A stretch of 9,039 nucleotides of DNA, taken from positions 1 through 9,039 of IMG/VR virus record IMGVR_UViG_2645727555_000009. The stretch is one strand, 5' to 3'. Each line of letters starts with the position of its first letter. The first letter of the stretch is position 1. A program made the position numbers and the translations under genes. Under the pieces are notes generated by a model that ran no database searches, was not told the origin of the DNA, and saw only the letters and a program-made list of their open reading frames with translations. Below are positions 68-8,912 of this stretch, one piece after another. Source of the stretch: a virus. Its lineage: Duplodnaviria; Heunggongvirae; Uroviricota; Caudoviricetes.

Positions 68-223
68 TTACTCCTCAGGTTCGTAAACTGTGAAGACAGC
101 GACCTCCGTCTGGCCGGTTCGGATTCGTACCTCGCAGAGGTCTTTCCTCGTTACCAGTGCCGTCACTATGACGGTTAAACAGATGACGATCAGGGCGATT
201 AACATCGCCTTTTGCTGCTTCAT
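68..223 (-). CDS. hokD: Hok/Gef family type I membrane toxin (HokD/RelF-like), 51 aa
   Basis: Translation from the internal ATG at 223 gives MKQQKAMLIALIVICLTVIVTALVTRKDLCEVRIRTGQTEVAVFTVYEPEE: a hydrophobic transmembrane helix followed by the conserved Hok periplasmic motif (RKxLCEVRIRTGQTEVA). It matches my recollection of E. coli HokD/RelF closely. AAGGAG lies 7 nt upstream of this ATG. The provided 70-aa ORF (68..280) is an in-frame upstream extension that may be a mok-like leader frame. Paralogue assignment is from memory, not a search. Confidence 0.85.
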   Translation of the reverse strand: MKQQKAMLIALIVICLTVIVTALVTRKDLCEVRIRTGQTEVAVFTVYEPEE

Positions 224-514
224 AGCCTGCTTCTCCTTGCCTTTCGGCACGTAAGAGGCTAACCTAGATTTGCCGTTCATAGATTGAGCCTCAGATTAAT
301 GTTAAGCGTCTTGCAGGACGCGTAATGTTAACTGGGGCTTTTCTCTATCTGCCTTTTGGTATTCATGCCTGAGACAGATAGCCTCAAGCACCCGCAGCAA
401 TTCTACTTAACTATCCTTTCCCCGCAAATCGTTTTTATCCCCAGCGACAAATCGAATACACCACCAGCGCCACCGCCATTGCGATCCCTACCGTTGTGAA
501 TGCCTCAGGCCAGG

Positions 515-859
515 TCATCGTAAAACATCCTCTGCGCTTATCAGTCCGTTTCGCTTCAGGTAGTCCATCGCCTTACCCGGCAATTTACAGTCCGGCTTCG
601 TTTTCCTCAGTTGCCAGGTTAACTGCTTTACCAGCATGGTTAACTCGTCGACCAGACGCTGATGTCCCACTGGTTTGTATTCATGCAATTTACCGGCTGG
701 CTCTGCTGCCAGCGATGCCAGTGCGATTTCCAGAACAGCAATATCCATCTTATATGTGCGGATGATGTCATGGTCGATTGTGCCCGGTATGCACAGTCTC
801 TGTGCTTCAATAGTCTCCTCTGCGTGAGCTATTAACTGCTCTCTGGTAAAAGTGGTCAT
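515..859 (-). CDS. Hypothetical small phage protein (114 aa), N-terminal paralogue of the 1373..1798 product
   Basis: ORF with a GAAGGAAG Shine-Dalgarno inside the upstream gene and an ATGA start/stop overlap with the 856..1371 gene. Its N-terminus ([20 protein letters not shown]...[10 protein letters not shown]) parallels MTELTKEQLIEEAKLKIAIAK...IALTSLEAEP of the 1373..1798 product, and the DNA around 690..730 resembles 1670..1710. Confidence 0.6.
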
Positions 860-1371
860 GCCGCGCTTCCTTCTTGCTTATTAACGATTACACCGTCATA
901 TATTTCATTAAGGTGTCCCCTCAACTCCATGCGCCTTAATGCAGACAACATGTAATCGCATTCAACCTGCTTATTTCCAGTAAATGGCTTATCGTCAGGA
1001 TCACCCCAACAGCAATTACCCTTGGGCCACCCATGTACTTTCCGTACTCTTCCGTTAACAACGTGAAGTAATCCCCAGCCAGGTGGTAAATCCTCAATTG
1101 AAATAATTCCCGGCTCACTAATAAAGAATCTCCAGTCGCCCATGCCAAGAGAGGGATTTTTACGGAAACGCTTTTTTCTATCTGCCAACAAGTCAGCACG
1201 AGAACACTTCGCCTCTATCAGGCATGATGCTGAATTTCTGAATCCCATAGCATCTGGTTGTTCTCCAGTACTGGTTACAGCAACAAAGCGGTCATGAAAG
1301 CAAACCTTGAACCCGTTGCGCTTAAGGAACCTGTACGCAATCTGACAGAGTTCGCGGTGTGTTAACGCCAT
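856..1371 (-). CDS. Putative PD-(D/E)xK nuclease-fold protein (Hjc / VRR-NUC-like N-terminal domain) with a Cys-rich C-terminal region, 171 aa
   Basis: The N-terminus has the layout helix ([19 protein letters not shown]), then GEQPD, then CLIEAK 11 residues after the PD, i.e. a PD...ExK motif as in Hjc/VRR-NUC resolvase-type nucleases. The C-terminal part carries several Cys (NCCWGD, ECD). Start is coupled to the upstream gene (GGAGAATGAGATG). Fold assignment is by motif recognition only. Confidence 0.5.
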
Positions 1372-1372
1372 C

Positions 1373-1798
1373 TCATTCTCCTTTGATGCGAATGTTTACA
1401 ACCTGACAAACCTCTTTGAGTACCCAGTCAACAGCGTCTTTCCACGCTCCAGTCTCAACTGGCGGATTCTCACGTTTTACTTGTTCATAGAAGTGCACAG
1501 CTTTAACCAGTCCTTCAGGTACTACAGGCACTGGCGGCATGCGATACAATGGAGTAACACAACGCGAAGCCTCATATTTATCTGACGGACGCTGAAATAT
1601 CTCACCGAACCCATATTTTTCAATATCTCGCAGTTCCTCGTCGTCAGTCCATGCCACCGGTTCTGCTTCCAGCGATGTCAGTGCAATTTTGAGTAACTCA
1701 CCCTCTACTCGTGCCACGCCTGAATTGGGATGGCATTTCGCAATCGCTATTTTTAATTTGGCTTCTTCGATTAATTGCTCTTTTGTTAATTCAGTCAT
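1373..1798 (-). CDS. Hypothetical small phage protein (141 aa), modular: N-terminus paralogous to the 515..859 product, C-terminus (…IRIKGE) shared with the 2228..2689 product
   Basis: ORF whose stop lies 1 nt before the next start. Shares an N-terminal ~50-aa module with the 114-aa protein and a C-terminal GxW…IRIKGE tail with the 153-aa protein. Confidence 0.55.
   Translation of the reverse strand: MTELTKEQLIEEAKLKIAIAKCHPNSGVARVEGELLKIALTSLEAEPVAWTDDEELRDIEKYGFGEIFQRPSDKYEASRCVTPLYRMPPVPVVPEGLVKAVHFYEQVKRENPPVETGAWKDAVDWVLKEVCQVVNIRIKGE
1377..1394. repeat. 18-bp exact direct repeat TCTCCTTTGATGCGAATG, copy 1, at the 141-aa/171-aa gene junction
   Basis: Identical 18-mer to 2256..2273. On the coding (minus) strand it reads CATTCGCATCAAAGGAGA, encoding the C-terminal RIKGE and supplying the AAGGAG ribosome-binding site for the next gene. 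Confidence 0.9.
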
Positions 1799-1893
1799 TT
1801 TTCATTACCGCTCTTTCTGGCGGCCTCCTGATGTTCTGAGGGTGCAGAAATCCCTCCGGCTAAGGATTAAATTTTTAACAGTTCTAAATTTAA

Positions 1894-2250
1894 CTATTCA
1901 GTTCTGGATTTTGTCGCCCTGCGTATCCGCGCTTTCGCGTTACGCTCAATCTGAATTAGCTTTTCTATATTTTTCCGTCTTTCCCGTTCCTCCTGACGCA
2001 ATAGCCTTACATCATCTGCCAGTCTGGTTTCTCTTTTCGCCACAGAGAGCATCCAGTCAAATGGCTCCACAACTGCGCCGCAGATTTTACAGCGGACCTG
2101 ACGCTCTTTTTCATCAACCCGGACAGAGGCGTGATGGCAGTATGGTCTTTCCGATGGCTCATAAAGAAAATTAACCTGATTACGCGGGTCATCCTCTTTT
2201 ACAGGAAATAAAACGATATTGCTTAACTCATCCTCTGGTTTTATTTCCAT
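1894..2250 (-). CDS. Hypothetical zinc-ribbon protein with a basic coiled-coil C-terminus (118 aa)
   Basis: Strong Shine-Dalgarno AGGAGAGGAG before the ATG at 2250. Contains CHH…(x16)…CKIC, a likely Zn-binding motif, and an Arg/Lys/Glu-rich C-terminal helix. No family recognised. Confidence 0.55.
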   Translation of the reverse strand: MEIKPEDELSNIVLFPVKEDDPRNQVNFLYEPSERPYCHHASVRVDEKERQVRCKICGAVVEPFDWMLSVAKRETRLADDVRLLRQEERERRKNIEKLIQIERNAKARIRRATKSRTE

Positions 2251-2689
2251 GCTCCTCTCCTTTGATGCGAATGCCAGCGACGCGTAATGCGTGTTCTAGG
2301 TCAATCAGGTAAAGCCAACTGCCATTTTCTTTAGGTATCATGACATGTCGCTCATCTGCATTTATCGGGTGTCCATATCGAAGGTCGTAGCGAGTCGGTA
2401 ATTGAACTTCCCGCGCTTCCAGTGCAGCAATACGCTTGCTCCCATCAGAGATAACGCCTTCGTAATACTCACGCTGCTCGTTGAGTTGTGATTTTGCTTC
2501 TTCCAGTCCATCCAGCAAATCAGCGATAATATCCGCTTCCCGATGACGGATGTGACGCTTAAACGCAGCAAGAGCCGCATCACAATCCCGTTCAGCATTT
2601 GGGCTGTCCGGGATAGCCTGATACCACGCCAGCGTCGACTGATAGTTTTGTGCTGCCTCACGAAGCGCCTCATAGTTAACCTCTCTCAT
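2228..2689 (-). CDS. Hypothetical phage protein (153 aa) sharing the IRIKGE C-terminal module
   Basis: GAGGTGG Shine-Dalgarno and ATG at 2689, with an ATGA overlap onto the upstream gene's stop. Its 3' end overlaps the next gene's start by 23 nt. Confidence 0.55.
   Translation of the reverse strand: MREVNYEALREAAQNYQSTLAWYQAIPDSPNAERDCDAALAAFKRHIRHREADIIADLLDGLEEAKSQLNEQREYYEGVISDGSKRIAALEAREVQLPTRYDLRYGHPINADERHVMIPKENGSWLYLIDLEHALRVAGIRIKGEEHGNKTRG
2256..2273. repeat. 18-bp exact direct repeat TCTCCTTTGATGCGAATG, copy 2, at the 153-aa/118-aa gene junction
   Basis: Exact match to 1377..1394; flanking DNA is not conserved. Confidence 0.9.
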
Positions 2690-2982
2690 TGAGCCACCTC
2701 CTGATAAATCACCGCATGCCCCAGTTTCTCCGCCAGTGCCAGCTCTGCCTTAGCGCCCGCTGACCGCTGCCAGCCATTCAGCATGTAAATCGCATCCACA
2801 CAACGAATCATTGCCATGCAAATATCCATGTAGTGCGGCTGTGTCAGCCCGTCCGGAAGTACTGCCGGGTTTAAGACGGTATGCCCTTCCCGTTTCAGTT
2901 CCTCTTCCGCCTTGTGAAACGCCTCACGGTTGAAATTTTCATATCCCGTCATTGGACCGGCAATATAAACTCTCACCCTCAC
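2686..2982 (-). CDS. DUF4406-like protein (nucleoside 2-deoxyribosyltransferase-like fold), about 98 aa
   Basis: Proposed GTG start at 2982, with AGGAGG 8 nt upstream and overlapping the upstream stop. The N-terminal motif VRVYIAGPMTGYENFN…VLNP is what I recall for DUF4406/NDT-like proteins. The provided ORF (to 3051) is probably over-extended at the 5' end. Confidence 0.55.
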   Translation of the reverse strand: MRVRVYIAGPMTGYENFNREAFHKAEEELKREGHTVLNPAVLPDGLTQPHYMDICMAMIRCVDAIYMLNGWQRSAGAKAELALAEKLGHAVIYQEVAQ

Positions 2983-3371
2983 TCCATCACCTCCTGAAAG
3001 TTTCCCCGATAGAACGCCAGCACACGCTGCATAACCTCGCTCTGGCGGCACTCACGACAAATTATGTTCTGCCATCTGTTGTAACGACGTATTTCTCCGT
3101 CAGGTAACTTTCGAATCAGTGTCGGGTCAGCAGCCTTCTCCGGTGTCTTACGCCATACGCGATACGCCTGCTCTGATGGAAATACCCCGCAATCAGAGAG
3201 CCAGACATCACCACAGGCCGCAAGCGCACCAGATAAACGACGAATAGCGGTCTTACTGACACCCGTTTTATCTGCCAGTTGTCGAAAAGTTTCTCGTCCG
3301 CTCAGGCGCACGAATTCCACAATGCGCGCCTTCACTTCTTCCCGCTCTTCCTGTGTAAATACTCTTGCCAT
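2979..3371 (-). CDS. Hypothetical helix-turn-helix protein (about 130 aa)
   Basis: ATG at 3371 preceded by GGAGGT; the longer ORF to 3386 begins with TTG and is less likely. HTH-like segment RETFRQLADKTGVSKTAIRRLSGAL, plus a CxxC near the C-terminus (ICRECRQ). Confidence 0.55.
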   Translation of the reverse strand: MARVFTQEEREEVKARIVEFVRLSGRETFRQLADKTGVSKTAIRRLSGALAACGDVWLSDCGVFPSEQAYRVWRKTPEKAADPTLIRKLPDGEIRRYNRWQNIICRECRQSEVMQRVLAFYRGNFQEVME

Positions 3372-3386
3372 AAGTACCTCCGGCAA

Positions 3387-4157
3387 TCACTTTTCCGACA
3401 CAATACGACTGGAGGAATCGACAATCTGTCGAACAATATCCTGGTGCTTGTTCAGCTCACGCAGCGCAGCACAGACTCGCTCCCACTTCTGAACCTGACC
3501 TTTTGCCCGGCGCAGTTCGCGGTTAGCCACATGCAGCGATGGTAAAATCAGACTATCCGGATGCTTTCTGGTGAACGACGGCTGTGACTGCACTGTGACC
3601 GCCACACTTTCAGTTTTAATTTCTTCCTGTGTTTCCGCTTCCCGGACTGGTAACGCAACACCTGCTGGCTGAGGAAAGGCTTTACCATCGGTTTCCGTTA
3701 CCGATGCAGCTTCCGGCTCTGCCGGTAAATCAGCGCCCGGTATGCAGTAACGAAATTTACCGTTCTGATTTACGCGTGCCAGGCGCCCCGTTGCTGTTAC
3801 GACCGCCAACGTGGAAGCAACCTTGCGAATGCTAACACCGAACTTATCCGCCACTTCCTCACACGTTTTAGCCCCATCCTGACAGATAAACTCAATCATC
3901 ATGTCCGCGGTAACTTTTTGTTCGACCTCCCCGGTCAGCACATCCGGTACTTCAGACTGTGCTGGCTGCTCTTCGGTTACCCCGGATTCACCTTCACCAG
4001 CCAGAAACCAGGTGTGACCCGTTTTATCAACAACGCCATTTTTTTTGAGTTCCCACAGTTCGTTGAGAACTTCTTCACGGCTGATATCAAGCCGCGCCGC
4101 CAGTTCAACAGAATTGGCTTTACCCATCGCTTTCAGTGCATGCAATACGGTTTCCAT
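3387..4157 (-). CDS. Hypothetical phage protein with two winged-helix-like modules separated by acidic linkers (256 aa)
   Basis: GGAGGAAG Shine-Dalgarno before the ATG at 4157. Residues 1-45 ([37 protein letters not shown]) and about 85-135 ([33 protein letters not shown]) both resemble wHTH DNA-binding modules, separated by E/Q/T-rich low-complexity linkers. Confidence 0.6.
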
Positions 4158-4186: not shown

Positions 4187-4927
4187 TCAGTTCCTGTGCT
4201 GGCTGACGTTCGGACGCCAGCTCTCCCAGTTAAACGTCACCCAGCGACCACCGTTCATGACCATGCGGTCCATCACACGCTCGCCAAGAAGCGTACTCAT
4301 CGCTACGTGGTTCAGGTTCGTCAGCATTCCGACACTACGCATCGAAGCCGTTCTGCGGTCGACTATCTGGTTCAGTGTGACCTGCTCGTTGCGCGTATCC
4401 CGCTGCATTCCGATTTCATCCAGGACAAGCAGGTCAACATCACACAACCCCTGTAAAAATTTTTCGCCTGAGTTTTTGTTGTCGTAGCTGTTGTGTAACG
4501 CCAGCATCACATCAGCCACCGTTATCACAATCACGCTGCGACCTTTCGCCAGAAGATGATTGCCAATGGCGGCTGCAAGGTGGTTCTTTCCGGTACCCGG
4601 CTTACCGCTGAACACAAAATTCGTGCACCCTGTCATCAGTTCGTCAGCGATGGATTTTGCCTGGCTCAGCGCATGTTTTTGCCCGTCGTTCTGCACCTGA
4701 TAATTCGCAAACGAGCATTTGCTGTGCAGAGGCTGGATGCCCGAACGATTCAGGATTTTTTCCACCCGCAACTGGCGATTCTGGCGGTTGATCTCCTCGC
4801 TACGTTTTCGCCCTTCTGCCAGTTGCCACTCGCGCCACTCGTCCACTGTCCGGTACGGCGCGATTACATGCTGCGGGGTCAGCTTACGGATACGCTCAAG
4901 AACACCACCTGTCGCGATATTTTTCAT
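4187..4927 (-). CDS. DnaC-like AAA+ helicase loader (phage P-protein functional analogue; YdaV/IstB-like ATPase)
   Basis: Walker [16 protein letters not shown] and Walker [10 protein letters not shown], 246 aa, AGGGGGTAA Shine-Dalgarno, lying immediately downstream of the initiator gene. Confidence 0.85.
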
Positions 4928-4933
4928 GGCCCG

Positions 4934-5899
4934 TTACCCCCTGAACCCCGGCGGAATTTCGGTATCCGGCTCAGAAATATGATTCACGCAACGCTGTACA
5001 GACGAACGCCCCAGGCGGATAACCAGTTCATCCCATTTTTCGCGAAGCTTTGACGGACTCATGATATTTTTTACCCAGAATGGATCCCGCTGCGCCCGAC
5101 CAAACATTTCACAAATTTGTCTGTGAGTTCTGCCATCCAGCATCCGCATTGTGCGCACGTCGTTGGCCCATGCGGTCCAGTTGGGTTCTTTCGGTCGCGA
5201 AATCTCGCCATCATCGCTGGCGGCCTGCTCGTAAAGACTCACGATTCGTCCCCAGATCCACTGCGCACACGCCAAATCTTCCTGGTTGCCCCACTGGCGT
5301 TTTTTTGCACTGAACACAACCGCGTCAGGGTGTCGGGTTAAAAAATCCTGTTCAACCGTCTGCGGGTCCGGTTGCGAAGCTTCCGGACGAGAAGTGTTTT
5401 TATTCTCTGTAGTAATCTCTGTTGTATTCTCTGTAAGATCATCAGGCCATTTTGACCCGATGACATTGAGTCGTTTTGAACCAATGGAACGTGCCATTTT
5501 GGCCCCTTCCATCGTGTCATTCTGACCTGATGGAGCAGCGCATTTTGACCTGATGGATTCGCTCACTTTGCCACCATTTAAAAGCTCGCTCTCGTAATTA
5601 ATCGTGTAAAAATTAGTCATATCACGCTTTGATTTATTGAGCTTTTCGCAACGCAAAAGCCCCAGCGTTTTCAGACTTGCAAATGCGCGTTTTAACGTTG
5701 ACTCTGACCAGAACGGGAACTGCTCCAGCCATTGTTCTGTTGTGTTATAAATCCAGCGAACACCATCACATTCCATGCCGGAACCGGTATCTCTCAACCA
5801 GTAATGCAACTGCTGCAACACGATGGCTTCGTTCAGACCAATTTTCATCGCCAGCTGCGTGTTTATAACCAGCGGACGTTCAGCAAAAAGGAGCTTCAT
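4934..5899 (-). CDS. Phage replication initiation protein (lambda O-like / YdaU-like), with the origin iterons inside the coding sequence
   Basis: Long ORF upstream of the DnaC-like gene. ATG at 5899 (MKLLFAERP…); the provided ORF extends to a TTG at 5923 that overlaps the ydaT stop. Five iterons lie inside the coding sequence, encoding the repeated IGSK peptide. The C-terminus is the type typically fused to helicase-loader-recruiting initiators. Confidence 0.75.
   Translation of the reverse strand: MKLLFAERPLVINTQLAMKIGLNEAIVLQQLHYWLRDTGSGMECDGVRWIYNTTEQWLEQFPFWSESTLKRAFASLKTLGLLRCEKLNKSKRDMTNFYTINYESELLNGGKVSESIRSKCAAPSGQNDTMEGAKMARSIGSKRLNVIGSKWPDDLTENTTEITTENKNTSRPEASQPDPQTVEQDFLTRHPDAVVFSAKKRQWGNQEDLACAQWIWGRIVSLYEQAASDDGEISRPKEPNWTAWANDVRTMRMLDGRTHRQICEMFGRAQRDPFWVKNIMSPSKLREKWDELVIRLGRSSVQRCVNHISEPDTEIPPGFRG
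5448..5558. repeat. Putative phage replication origin: five iterons (consensus CATTTTGACCTGATGGA) with about 23-bp periodicity, followed by a moderately AT-rich segment (5560..5640)
   Basis: Iteron starts at 5448, 5472, 5495, 5518 and 5541 (spacing 24/23/23/23). The two best copies are CATTCTGACCTGATGGA (5518..5534) and CATTTTGACCTGATGGA (5541..5557). The layout matches a lambda-type origin embedded in the O gene. Confidence 0.7.
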
Positions 5900-5908
5900 C
5901 CCCCCCCC
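5900..5908. repeat. Homopolymeric tract (C9 on plus, G9 on the coding strand) directly abutting the initiator ATG
   Basis: Nine consecutive C at 5900..5908. On the minus strand this is GGGGGGGGG immediately 5' of the ATG at 5899, or inside the coding sequence if the TTG at 5923 is the start. Confidence 0.9.
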
Positions 5909-5919
5909 AGAACACGTTA

Positions 5920-6345
5920 TCAATGCGCCACCACGGCATTTCCCGCCGGACCACCACGATTCATCTGATCGAACAACACGATCGCTGCCGCAACAAACTC
6001 ATCGATATCTTTCACCAGGCGCTCCCGTCGCTCGACAAGCTCCCGGTGATATTCCGAACTGTGGCTGCGCATTCGGGCCACCAGTGGAGGCGGCATTGCT
6101 TTTTCGATCGCCGGTAACAACGCCTGAATTTTTTTAACCGCATCAGGGGTGTCTTTTTCTACCCAGCGGAAAATTTTCTGGGTATTACGAGACAGGGCTT
6201 CCGGATGGCTGTCGTCATACAGTTCAGGAAACGTCATACCCAACTCAAAATAAGCCTGGGTTATTCCAGCTACTGGAACTTTTTCGCCATCAGGACGCGC
6301 CCAGGCATTCATTGCCATGCGGATGTGTTCATGCTTGATTTTCAT
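5920..6345 (-). CDS. ydaT: YdaT-like protein (proposed cII functional analogue of Rac/CP-933P-type prophages), 141 aa
   Basis: Sits second in the rightward operon, directly after the Cro-like gene and before the replication genes. Its size and N-terminus (MKIKHEHIRMAMNAW…) fit my recollection of the YdaT family. Family assignment is from memory. Confidence 0.55.
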   Translation of the reverse strand: MKIKHEHIRMAMNAWARPDGEKVPVAGITQAYFELGMTFPELYDDSHPEALSRNTQKIFRWVEKDTPDAVKKIQALLPAIEKAMPPPLVARMRSHSSEYHRELVERRERLVKDIDEFVAAAIVLFDQMNRGGPAGNAVVAH

Positions 6346-6604
6346 GAATCACCCCCGCCTCTGGTTGTGTGTTAGCCTGATACTCGACAGGTAAGCCGTC
6401 GGTTGGGTTGGGATAAGTACTGCCATCAATCTCGTGCGGAGTTACTATCCAGCCTGTTGCTTCGCACCAGCGTAAAATTTTTTTCCCCGTAAGTTTCGCC
6501 CGTCCGGTAATGACATGGCTTACCATCCCTTGGGTTACCCCAACAATTTCAGCAAAATGCTTCTGAGTTATACCGGAATGATGCAAATATTCTCCAAGAT
6601 TCAT
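6329..6604 (-). CDS. ydaS: Cro-like HTH regulator (YdaS/DicC-type), 91 aa
   Basis: First gene of the rightward operon, divergent from the repressor gene. HTH segment ITQKHFAEIVGVTQGMVSHV; GAGGTGA Shine-Dalgarno 5 nt before the ATG at 6604. Confidence 0.65.
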   Translation of the reverse strand: MNLGEYLHHSGITQKHFAEIVGVTQGMVSHVITGRAKLTGKKILRWCEATGWIVTPHEIDGSTYPNPTDGLPVEYQANTQPEAGVIHENQA

Positions 6605-7229: not shown

Positions 7230-7421
7230 ATGAGTACAGCCCTTTCCCCGATAATTTCTGAATTTGAAACAGTCGAACAAGAAAACAGCTATAACGAATG
7301 GTTGCGAACCAAAGTGGCAGCAAGCCTCTCAGATCCCCGTCCTGCAATTCCACATGACGAAGTAATGGCTGAAATGGAAAACCTTATTGCTCAATTAGCT
7401 GCAACGAACAGGAGTGAGTAA
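7230..7421 (+). CDS. paaA2: Small antitoxin of a ParE-type toxin-antitoxin module (PaaA2-like), 63 aa
   Basis: Strong GAGGAGG Shine-Dalgarno; 63 aa, acidic; its stop overlaps the toxin start (TAATG). Size, position and sequence (…SEFETVEQENSYNEWLR…PRPAIPHDEV…) fit my recollection of PaaA2. Confidence 0.6.
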   Translation: MSTALSPIISEFETVEQENSYNEWLRTKVAASLSDPRPAIPHDEVMAEMENLIAQLAATNRSE

Positions 7422-7711
7422 TGCTGCCCATTTTATGGCTACCTTCTGCACGTGATGATTTACGTCAGATCGTAGCCTATATTGCTAAGGAAAACCCTCC
7501 CGCTGCACGTAGACTAAAAATACGCATTGAAACATCAGTTTTGTCACTTACTGAACACCCTTATCTGTACCCACCGAGCGAAAGAGTTCCAAGTCTTCGT
7601 GAGATAGTGACTCATCCTAACTACATAATACTTTACCGAGTAACAGCATCTAACATCGAGATCGTAAATGTAGTTCACTCACGAAGACAGTATCCAAACA
7701 AAACCTGTTAA
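7421..7711 (+). CDS. parE2: ParE/RelE-superfamily toxin (ParE2-like), 96 aa
   Basis: Translationally coupled to the upstream antitoxin by a 1-nt overlap. The sequence has the ParE-family pattern (…LRQIVAYIAKENPPAARRL…YRVTASNIEIVNVVHSRR). Confidence 0.7.
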   Translation: MLPILWLPSARDDLRQIVAYIAKENPPAARRLKIRIETSVLSLTEHPYLYPPSERVPSLREIVTHPNYIILYRVTASNIEIVNVVHSRRQYPNKTC

Positions 7712-8854: not shown

Positions 8855-8912
8855 TTTCTGGTGACGTTTGGCGGTATCAGTTTTACTCCGTGGCTGCTCT
8901 GCCGCCCTTTTT
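8855..8912 (+). ncRNA. dicF: DicF small RNA (prophage-encoded inhibitor of ftsZ translation) with its intrinsic terminator
   Basis: TTTCTGGTGACGTTTGGCGGTATCAGTTTTACTCCGTGGCTGCTCTGCCGCCCTTTTT matches my recollection of E. coli DicF with about one substitution. A GGCGG…CCGCC terminator stem is followed by a T5 run. It lies downstream of ydfC as in the Qin dicB operon. Confidence 0.8.

Follow-up and report, generated by a model that had tools for sequence, protein, structure and literature searches.

In phage lambda, ren lies downstream of P and lets lambda escape Rex exclusion. A longer homologue of ren is the first of four overlapping minus-strand genes at positions 1894-3371 of the stretch analysed here, 9,039 nucleotides (nt) of IMG/VR virus record IMGVR_UViG_2645727555_000009, which we refer to as the window. 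Besides this Ren homologue (DUF977/LygF), the genes encode what would be a stand-alone DUF4406 enzyme, a mosaic Ead/Ea22-like protein and a protein with a zinc ribbon and a long helix. Our analysis makes it very likely that the four are separate, independently exchangeable modules of a PR-type operon and not a functional system, with the DUF4406 protein as a putative N-glycosidase.

Lambda Ea22 belongs to a family of the exo-xis region, and the Ead/Ea22 family is mosaic, with a common N-terminus and coiled coil joined to unrelated C-terminal domains (PMC10834534). For the DUF4406 protein, two groups of enzymes can be compared. The nucleoside 2-deoxyribosyltransferases (NDTs; PF05014, with the structures 2a0k from T. 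brucei and 1f8x from L. leichmannii) start with YIAGP, carry a G-x3-E nucleophile helix and belong to the same Pfam clan and fold as DUF4406. The second group comprises DNPH1/Rcl, a 2'-deoxynucleoside 5'-phosphate N-hydrolase, and the CMP N-glycosidases MilB, BcmB and BlsM. In DNPH1, Y24, D80 and E104 form the catalytic triad, E104 forms a covalent deoxyribose-5-phosphate intermediate, and the phosphate is bound by S98 together with S128' of the partner subunit (PMC10603095).

Identity of the four gene products

The four genes, in operon order, are the following:

2979-3371, minus strand: DUF977/LygF gene, 130 amino acids (aa), ATG start, N-terminal winged helix-turn-helix (HTH); Pfam PF06163 (E=3.5e-42), phrog_142
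2686-2982, minus strand: DUF4406 gene, 98 aa, GTG start; Pfam PF14359, minimal NDT/DNPH1/MilB-like alpha/beta domain with conserved Y6, S74 and E80
2228-2689, minus strand: Ead/Ea22-like gene, 153 aa; Pfam PF13935 (44.2 bits, cut-off 27, residues 3-65), phrog_250
1894-2250, minus strand: zinc-ribbon protein gene, 118 aa, hypothetical protein in PGAP; phrog_1621 (E=1.8e-56)

The four open reading frames (ORFs) coincide exactly with the RefSeq/PGAP gene calls on a 99.9% identical E. coli chromosome, which confirms the minus-strand genes of the initial annotation; by megablast, positions 1800-3450 of the window showed 99.9% identity to E. coli chromosomes. All four genes belong to described families and RefSeq carries identical or near-identical annotated proteins. 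The initial annotation had assigned no function to any of the four; three that it left unnamed can be identified, one as a Ren homologue, one as Ead/Ea22-like and one as belonging to phrog_1621.

A search with the DUF977 protein detected phrog_142, 'Ren-like exclusion protein' (E=6e-42), to which lambda Ren also belongs. BLASTP aligned 90 aa with lambda Ren (NC_001416) at 28% identity (E=7e-8); CRECRQSEVMQRVLAFY is paired with FKECRQSAAMKRVLAVY in this alignment, and both proteins have the motif CRQS..M.RVLA.Y. The aligned part is the C-terminal 90 residues; lambda Ren has 96 aa, whereas the DUF977 protein with its 130 aa has an extra N-terminal segment and an insertion. Both genes are found after the replication genes, although in the window a DUF1627 gene separates DUF977 from these. 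Homology and position place the protein in the lambda Ren family, and as judged from its sequence DUF977/LygF is a longer lambda Ren homologue at the syntenic position of ren downstream of the replication genes. Relatives annotated as LygF or Ren-like were found in 25 phage records, including Rac-type and Stx phages, all of them enterobacterial. No solved structure matched the DUF977 protein by sequence.

The Ead/Ea22-like protein displays the N-terminal and coiled-coil signature of the family above threshold, as does lambda Ea22, and it resembles the published Ea22 variants in being a mosaic with a C-terminal domain of its own (PMC10834534), which ends in IRIKGE. In contrast to the exo-xis family of lambda Ea22, its gene is located in the PR operon, and its C-terminal domain is unrelated to the solved C-terminal domain of lambda Ea22; a comparison with PDB chains at E<=1, this domain included, revealed no match except one spurious one.

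The zinc-ribbon protein contains a C38-x-H40...C54-x2-C57 ribbon followed by a 55-residue basic helix. The Cys and His residues are invariant and the helix is almost invariant within the family, which was found in Enterobacterales only (21 phage records, all enterobacterial). The AlphaFold2 (AF2) model, with a pLDDT of 76, shows a hairpin at residues 43-54 and a helix at 63-117. In Pfam the protein had a sub-threshold match to the TFIIB zinc ribbon, and a fold search with the model gave no significant neighbour, generic TFIIB-type ribbons appearing at E>0.3. No solved structure matched by sequence. A DksA/TraR-like or Lar-like identity was considered and was unsupported by Pfam or fold search.

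Distribution of the four genes and their junctions

To follow the four genes in E. coli we used megablast against 5426 complete genomes, counting the whole block as 1651 bp at a coverage of at least 80%. The block was present in 461 genomes. Counted singly, every gene exceeded this number by a factor of 1.2 to 3.6, with 538 genomes for the DUF977 allele, 837 for the Ea22 allele, 1202 for DUF4406 and 1679 for the zinc-ribbon gene. Across a spread sample of E. coli, DUF4406 alleles of about 90-95% identity were flanked instead by genes for a 'DNA-binding protein' or a 'hypothetical protein', and the gene order in an O157:H7 prophage was DUF1627, hypothetical, DUF4406, DUF4752, hypothetical, Ea22-like.

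Exchange of partners was also seen among 80 IMG/VR loci with DUF4406 proteins 96-99% identical to that of the window. The identity of the DUF977 protein jumped between about 55-60% and 95-99%, and five of the 80 loci were without DUF977. Another gene was present between DUF4406 and the Ea22 C-terminus in about eight loci, and three loci had Ea22 without the zinc-ribbon gene.

The analysis was extended to 80 loci of other species, taken from a one-genome-per-species collection and carrying DUF4406 proteins of 43-94% identity. Here tblastn detected DUF977 at three loci, the zinc-ribbon gene at two and Ea22 at one. Pfam analysis of the adjacent same-strand ORFs gave a similar picture, with DUF977 as 2 of 76 upstream neighbours and Ead_Ea22 as 1 of 78 downstream neighbours. 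The neighbours of these DUF4406 genes included DnaB, GPA, Rep, methylases, Lar, dUTPase, HNH, SNF2, DUF968 and holins. The initial annotation had presented the four genes as a coupled cluster, open to refutation if they failed to co-occur elsewhere, and in distant genomes they did fail to remain neighbours (2/76 for DUF977, 1/78 for Ead_Ea22 and 2/80 for the zinc-ribbon gene). Phage records point the same way, with relatives of DUF4406 in 344 records versus 25 for DUF977 and 21 for the zinc-ribbon protein. In phage N15, gp57 (DUF4406) lies between gp56 and a cytosine methylase gene (Dcm), the phage vB_EcoS-813R8 has the order O, LygF, zinc-ribbon, and in the exo-xis region of Stx phage ArgO145 a 344-aa Ea22-like gene is followed by the zinc-ribbon gene.

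One could suppose that all four genes form a single co-translated system, for instance for counter-defence or the degradation of a nucleotide signal, in which the HTH and zinc-ribbon proteins control the DUF4406 protein or direct it to its target. The stop/start overlaps at all three junctions would fit such a system, as would the intact block in the 461 E. coli genomes and in most of the 80 loci with near-identical DUF4406. However, the genes are not one functional unit, because each is commoner than the block, partners switch even at 90-99% DUF4406 identity, and the partners are nearly absent around DUF4406 in the 80 other species. Overlaps of the same kind also occur with unrelated neighbours, and none of the four proteins matched PADLOC (E<=0.01) or NCBIfam. 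The lack of co-occurrence largely refutes a single system, which we regard as highly improbable. Some observations speak against fully independent modules. In E. coli prophages that are close relatives, the four genes are usually found together (most of the 80 IMG/VR loci and 461 genomes); the comparative data alone would be compatible with a weak functional linkage; and the tests in distant species relied on tblastn and Pfam, by which very divergent analogues of the partners could be missed.

The overlaps between the genes can be read directly from the sequence, as had been described: GTGA at 2979-2982, ATGA at 2686-2689 and 23 nt at 2228-2250. The junctions carry the following elements:

2990-2995, minus strand: Shine-Dalgarno (SD) sequence AGGAGG within the final DUF977 codons, 7 nt ahead of the GTG start of DUF4406
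2697-2702, minus strand: SD sequence AGGAGG within the final DUF4406 codons (tail YQEV), 7 nt ahead of the ATG of the Ea22-like gene
2256-2273, minus strand: 18-nt junction motif CATTCGCATCAAAGGAGA, which encodes IRIKGE, with the SD sequence AAGGAG 6 nt upstream of the zinc-ribbon ATG
1377-1394, minus strand: second IRIKGE/SD junction copy, at the end of gene 1373-1798 (next but one after the Ea22-like gene), with AAGGAG 6 nt ahead of the ATG start of gene 856-1371

The four genes are co-transcribed, and as each start overlaps the preceding stop or tail and a strong SD sequence is embedded in the preceding 3' end, translation could be coupled or re-initiated. Co-translation, as proposed in the initial annotation, is thus physically plausible, with stop/start overlaps and SD sequences 6-7 nt upstream of the starts; the step from there to a unit found no support. 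Judged from these elements, translational coupling or re-initiation at the three junctions is plausible but belongs to the generic packing of such operons. Overlaps of 4 nt between DUF4406 and whichever gene precedes or follows it were common in the 80 diverse loci and were also seen in annotated phages.

The IRIKGE tail, likewise noticed in the initial annotation, is real and encoded at 2256-2273. This segment and 1377-1394 form an exact 18-nt direct repeat. In the 80 related IMG/VR loci the motif joins three different upstream C-termini to three different downstream genes, which suggests that it is a portable ribosome-binding junction. The tail would then be conserved because of this junction, and the conserved tails IRIKGE and [FY]QEV would be the protein-level shadow of ribosome-binding junctions. 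We infer that modules are also exchanged at such junctions, in keeping with the long-standing view that lambdoid phages are mosaics whose module boundaries lie at gene borders.

The 23-nt overlap raises a narrower alternative, namely that the Ead/Ea22-like and zinc-ribbon proteins alone are a functional pair. The same junction between an Ea22 tail and the zinc-ribbon gene, with its 23-nt overlap, recurs in ArgO145, where it lies in the exo-xis region and the Ea22-like protein is much longer; a zinc-ribbon gene follows 71 of the 79 IRIKGE junction motifs in the 80 IMG/VR loci; and in Enterobacter phage Tyrion an Ea22-like gene precedes a zinc-ribbon homologue. In contrast, phages 813R8 and 640R1 have the zinc-ribbon gene directly after LygF and lack Ea22, and in phages of Klebsiella, Serratia, Hafnia and Providencia the gene that precedes a divergent zinc-ribbon homologue is NinG or a small unrelated one. 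Three IMG/VR loci (L030, L035 and L066) carry other genes after their Ea22 allele, and mis-joined 'fusion' gene calls place the zinc ribbon downstream of DUF977, DUF1133, DUF1627 and DUF4406. The support for a pair is weak and inconsistent, and we consider the pair an unlikely, residual possibility beside four exchangeable modules.

The DUF4406 protein as a putative N-glycosidase

The DUF4406 protein (WP_001266130.1) matched Pfam PF14359 with 128.9 bits (cut-off 22; E=1e-37) over profile positions 2-91 of 91, which makes it a member of this family, and it matched phrog_355; an identical protein is named 'DUF4406 domain-containing protein' by PGAP. The signature YIAGPMTG is present. The AF2 model (pLDDT 91.6) has the topology b1-a1-b2-a2-b3-a3-b4, and a Foldseek search of the PDB with this model detected nucleoside 2-deoxyribosyltransferases, MilB and DNPH1 with a probability of 1.00 and query TM-scores of 0.73-0.79. 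The protein covers about half of the 150-160-aa NDTs (target TM-score about 0.5). The model thus predicts membership of the NDT-like fold, a flavodoxin-like alpha/beta fold with a parallel sheet, in the Pfam clan that comprises PF05014, PF14359 and PF09152. The DUF4406/NDT-like assignment of the initial annotation is borne out by the Pfam match, the predicted fold and a profile alignment to a solved NDT.

Within this fold the protein is set apart from NDTs proper. Its score against PF05014 was 13.5 bits versus a cut-off of 28.8, and the Asp that binds the ribose 5'-OH in NDTs is replaced at the aligned position by an invariant Ser. DUF4406 ends after beta4; it is about 50-60 residues shorter than NDTs and lacks the C-terminal tail that reaches the active site of the partner. 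From DNPH1/Rcl, MilB, BcmB and BlsM it differs in its length of 98 aa, with a LNPAxLPxGL loop of its own and conserved N18, R19 and F22. DUF1937 (PDB 1t1j, a structural-genomics protein), which is also among the closest known proteins, is another Pfam family.

Searches of the PDB by phmmer and with a narrow profile (A1) revealed nothing relevant for DUF4406, and a wider profile of 64 diverse members (A5) was needed. With A5, the T. brucei NDT 2a0k was the best sequence-detectable solved relative (E=1.2e-4, full length). L. mexicana NDT, BcmB, BlsM, 1t1j and MilB were below significance, and DNPH1/MilB-type similarity alone gave E values of 0.17-1.8. In the alignment with 2a0k, Y6 falls on the Tyr of YIAGP and S74-x-G-A-x2-E80 falls on D-x-G-T-x-F-E, with E80 at the position of the nucleophile Glu. 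BcmB and BlsM read S-P-G-T-H-x-E at the aligned site, and the motif S-x-G-x3-E is common to DUF4406, DNPH1, BcmB and BlsM. The only local match of the DUF4406 family hidden Markov model to human DNPH1, whose sequence was checked against the PDB, pairs SAGAKAELALA with SLGVGYELGRA and aligns E80 with E104. An hhalign comparison of the narrow A1 alignment with the single human DNPH1 sequence gave a meaningless 24-column match and was discarded.

S74 is invariant in the 64 diverse members, and E80 and Y6 are at least 90% conserved in the family. DUF4406 has the two residues that characterise the DNPH1/MilB type, the Tyr on beta1 and, where the helix after beta3 begins, the nucleophile Glu; six residues before this Glu it has a Ser of the kind predicted to bind phosphate (S74). 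Because the Tyr, the nucleophile Glu and the DNPH1-type phosphate-binding Ser are kept, our best guess is that DUF4406 is an N-glycosidase of (deoxy)nucleoside monophosphates, (d)NMPs; in these residues it looks more like DNPH1 or MilB than like a true nucleoside transferase. Such an enzyme would hydrolyse the N-glycosidic bond of a 5'-phosphorylated (deoxy)nucleotide by the retaining mechanism of DNPH1 and MilB. With Glu80 as the nucleophile attacking C1', the reaction would pass through a covalent (deoxy)ribosyl-5-phosphate-enzyme intermediate, which Tyr6 would support, and Ser74 would bind the phosphate. Its role may be to shape or sanitise the phage nucleotide pool during early replication.

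Some points tell against this assignment. The AF2 alignment for DUF4406 was shallow, with 28 sequences. D53, the candidate equivalent of the catalytic general-acid Asp (D80 in DNPH1), is conserved in only about 60-85% and is offset by three residues in the 2a0k alignment. Finally, DUF4406 lacks the C-terminal beta-alpha extension by which DNPH1 and NDTs complete the active site of the neighbouring subunit (S128' in DNPH1).

Alternatively, DUF4406 might be no nucleotide-pool enzyme but a true nucleoside 2-deoxyribosyltransferase, which swaps bases on nucleosides, or a TIR/NDT-like glycosidase or binder of NAD+ or an immune signal in phage-host conflict. The invariant Ser in place of the 5'-OH-binding Asp of NDTs, as in the 5'-phosphate-binding DNPH1, BcmB and BlsM, argues against this, as does the sub-threshold PF05014 score. 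Matches to TIR proteins were weaker than those to NDTs and MilB, PADLOC gave no match, and the labels used in phage records disagree and have no experimental basis. We find these activities improbable, and a (d)NMP N-glycosidase remains the preferred assignment. Less probable again is that DUF4406 is a minimal stand-alone N-glycosidase acting on a conflict-related nucleotide, such as a host immune signal, a messenger derived from NAD+ or a (d)NMP, toxic or modified, that a host defence produces. If true, phages would possess a widespread counter-defence enzyme of a new class, with more than 12,000 clusters at 50% identity, and the Ren homologue next to it would be a hint of a small anti-exclusion islet. 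Nothing in our analysis points specifically to a counter-defence role for DUF4406.

The family is large, with 12,253 clusters at 50% identity (E<=1e-3), and the 344 phage records span Proteobacteria and Actinobacteria as hosts, with Vibrio, Arthrobacter, Mycobacterium, Aeromonas and Pseudomonas phages as well as coliphage N15. The names given to these genes conflict and range over NDT, CMP N-glycosidase, deoxycytidylate deaminase, MazG-like pyrophosphatase and hydrolase. The actinophage 'deoxycytidylate deaminase' and 'MazG-like pyrophosphatase' were considered as DUF4406 fusions; they are stand-alone genes of 95-117 aa with inconsistent names and were not used as evidence. Such stand-alone DUF4406-like genes of Arthrobacter and Mycobacterium phages, with unreliable annotations, were seen at 1492-1821, 1504-1857 and 1510-1797 of the stretches L166, L167 and L168, respectively. 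No informative partner domain was found in the long DUF4406 'fusion' proteins (235-358 aa), which are probably mis-called starts or extensions of unknown nature. A literature search found DUF4406 merely listed as a domain and no functional paper on it, and the papers on phage NDTs concern PF05014.

Separately, the DUF4406 gene of N15 overlaps the downstream cytosine-5 DNA methyltransferase gene by 20 nt (gp57-gp58; stretch L164, 2501-3809). In a few cases a DNA methylase gene was also found near DUF4406 in other species, and a link to the handling of modified nucleotides is possible.

The early operon and the meaning of the locus

The window is the immunity/early region (9 kb) of a Rac/Qin-like lambdoid prophage of E. 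coli, and the phage setting proposed initially is correct in that the four genes lie in a lambdoid prophage early operon. In strain SHP24, the PGAP order on the minus strand is cro-like transcriptional regulator, YdaT-family, replication protein O, ATP-binding protein (DnaC/IstB-like), DUF1627, DUF977, DUF4406, ead/Ea22-like, hypothetical, further hypotheticals, hokD, DUF968, RusA and Q; a cI-like gene precedes the cro-like gene in the annotation of the matching locus. Upstream of the four genes the window contains:

6329-6604, minus strand: cro-like gene, upstream end of the compact operon
4934-5923, minus strand: O-like initiator, 'phage replication protein O' in PGAP
4187-4927, minus strand: DnaC/IstB-like loader, Pfam IstB_IS21 (E=4e-18), 'ATP-binding protein' in PGAP
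3387-4157, minus strand: DUF1627 gene with a double winged HTH, also called by PGAP, Pfam PF07789 (E=3e-85), immediately upstream of DUF977 in the same operon

From 6329-6604 through 515-859, neighbouring genes overlap or are separated by gaps of 0-30 nt, the sole exception being a gap of 95 nt at 1799-1893. No terminator-like site was found on the minus strand between 515 and 6600, and an internal terminator or promoter that would divide the four genes, which we considered, was not found on this strand either. Given the compact packing of the whole operon and the absence of a minus-strand terminator, the boundaries of the proposed cluster are arbitrary. Positions 1894-3371 form part of the PR-type (rightward early) operon and fall in its variable accessory zone, which has the replication genes on one side and the nin/hok region on the other.

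Several further features were observed in the window. The two winged-HTH units of the DUF1627 protein span residues of about 3-50 and 85-135; a defence role for this protein was considered and set aside, the weak PADLOC matches to Csa3/CARF3 being confined to the HTH part. The 171-aa protein encoded at 856-1371 (minus strand; phrog_631/9263) had no Pfam match and contains a PD...(E)xK-like motif (PDAMGF...IEAKC), which suggests a nuclease of the restriction-endonuclease fold; its gene is intact in the window and annotated as frameshifted in SHP24. The genes 515-859 and 1373-1798 (minus strand) have an N-terminal module in common (both phrog_660), with a 31-nt repeat of 87% identity at 699-729 and 1659-1689, a further sign of domain-level mosaicism in this zone.

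A hok/sok type I toxin-antitoxin locus lies at 68-393 (minus strand), with a hokD-like ORF at 68-280, for which PGAP calls a shorter HokD of 51 aa, and the adjoining sok antitoxin RNA at 218-393 (Rfam RF01794, 112 bits). On the plus strand, a RelB/RelE-type toxin-antitoxin pair (7230-7421 and 7421-7711; names from PGAP at the matching E. coli locus) is located right after the cI-like repressor gene. The antisense small RNA DicF at 8856-8907 (plus strand; Rfam RF00039, 75 bits) identifies the leftward arm as a ydfA-ydfB-ydfC-DicF-dicB region of the Qin/Rac type.

As a cluster, the four genes are a routine annotated piece of a mosaic early operon that occurs in the lambdoid prophages of hundreds to thousands of E. 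coli genomes. With their tails explained by ribosome-binding junctions, they call for caution in inferring functional linkage in a phage operon from overlapping genes or a short motif at the C-terminus. For the DUF4406 family, the Tyr / Ser-x5-Glu pattern offers a concrete and cheap biochemical hypothesis, that of a (d)NMP N-glycosidase, for a widespread phage protein that has so far carried inconsistent names.

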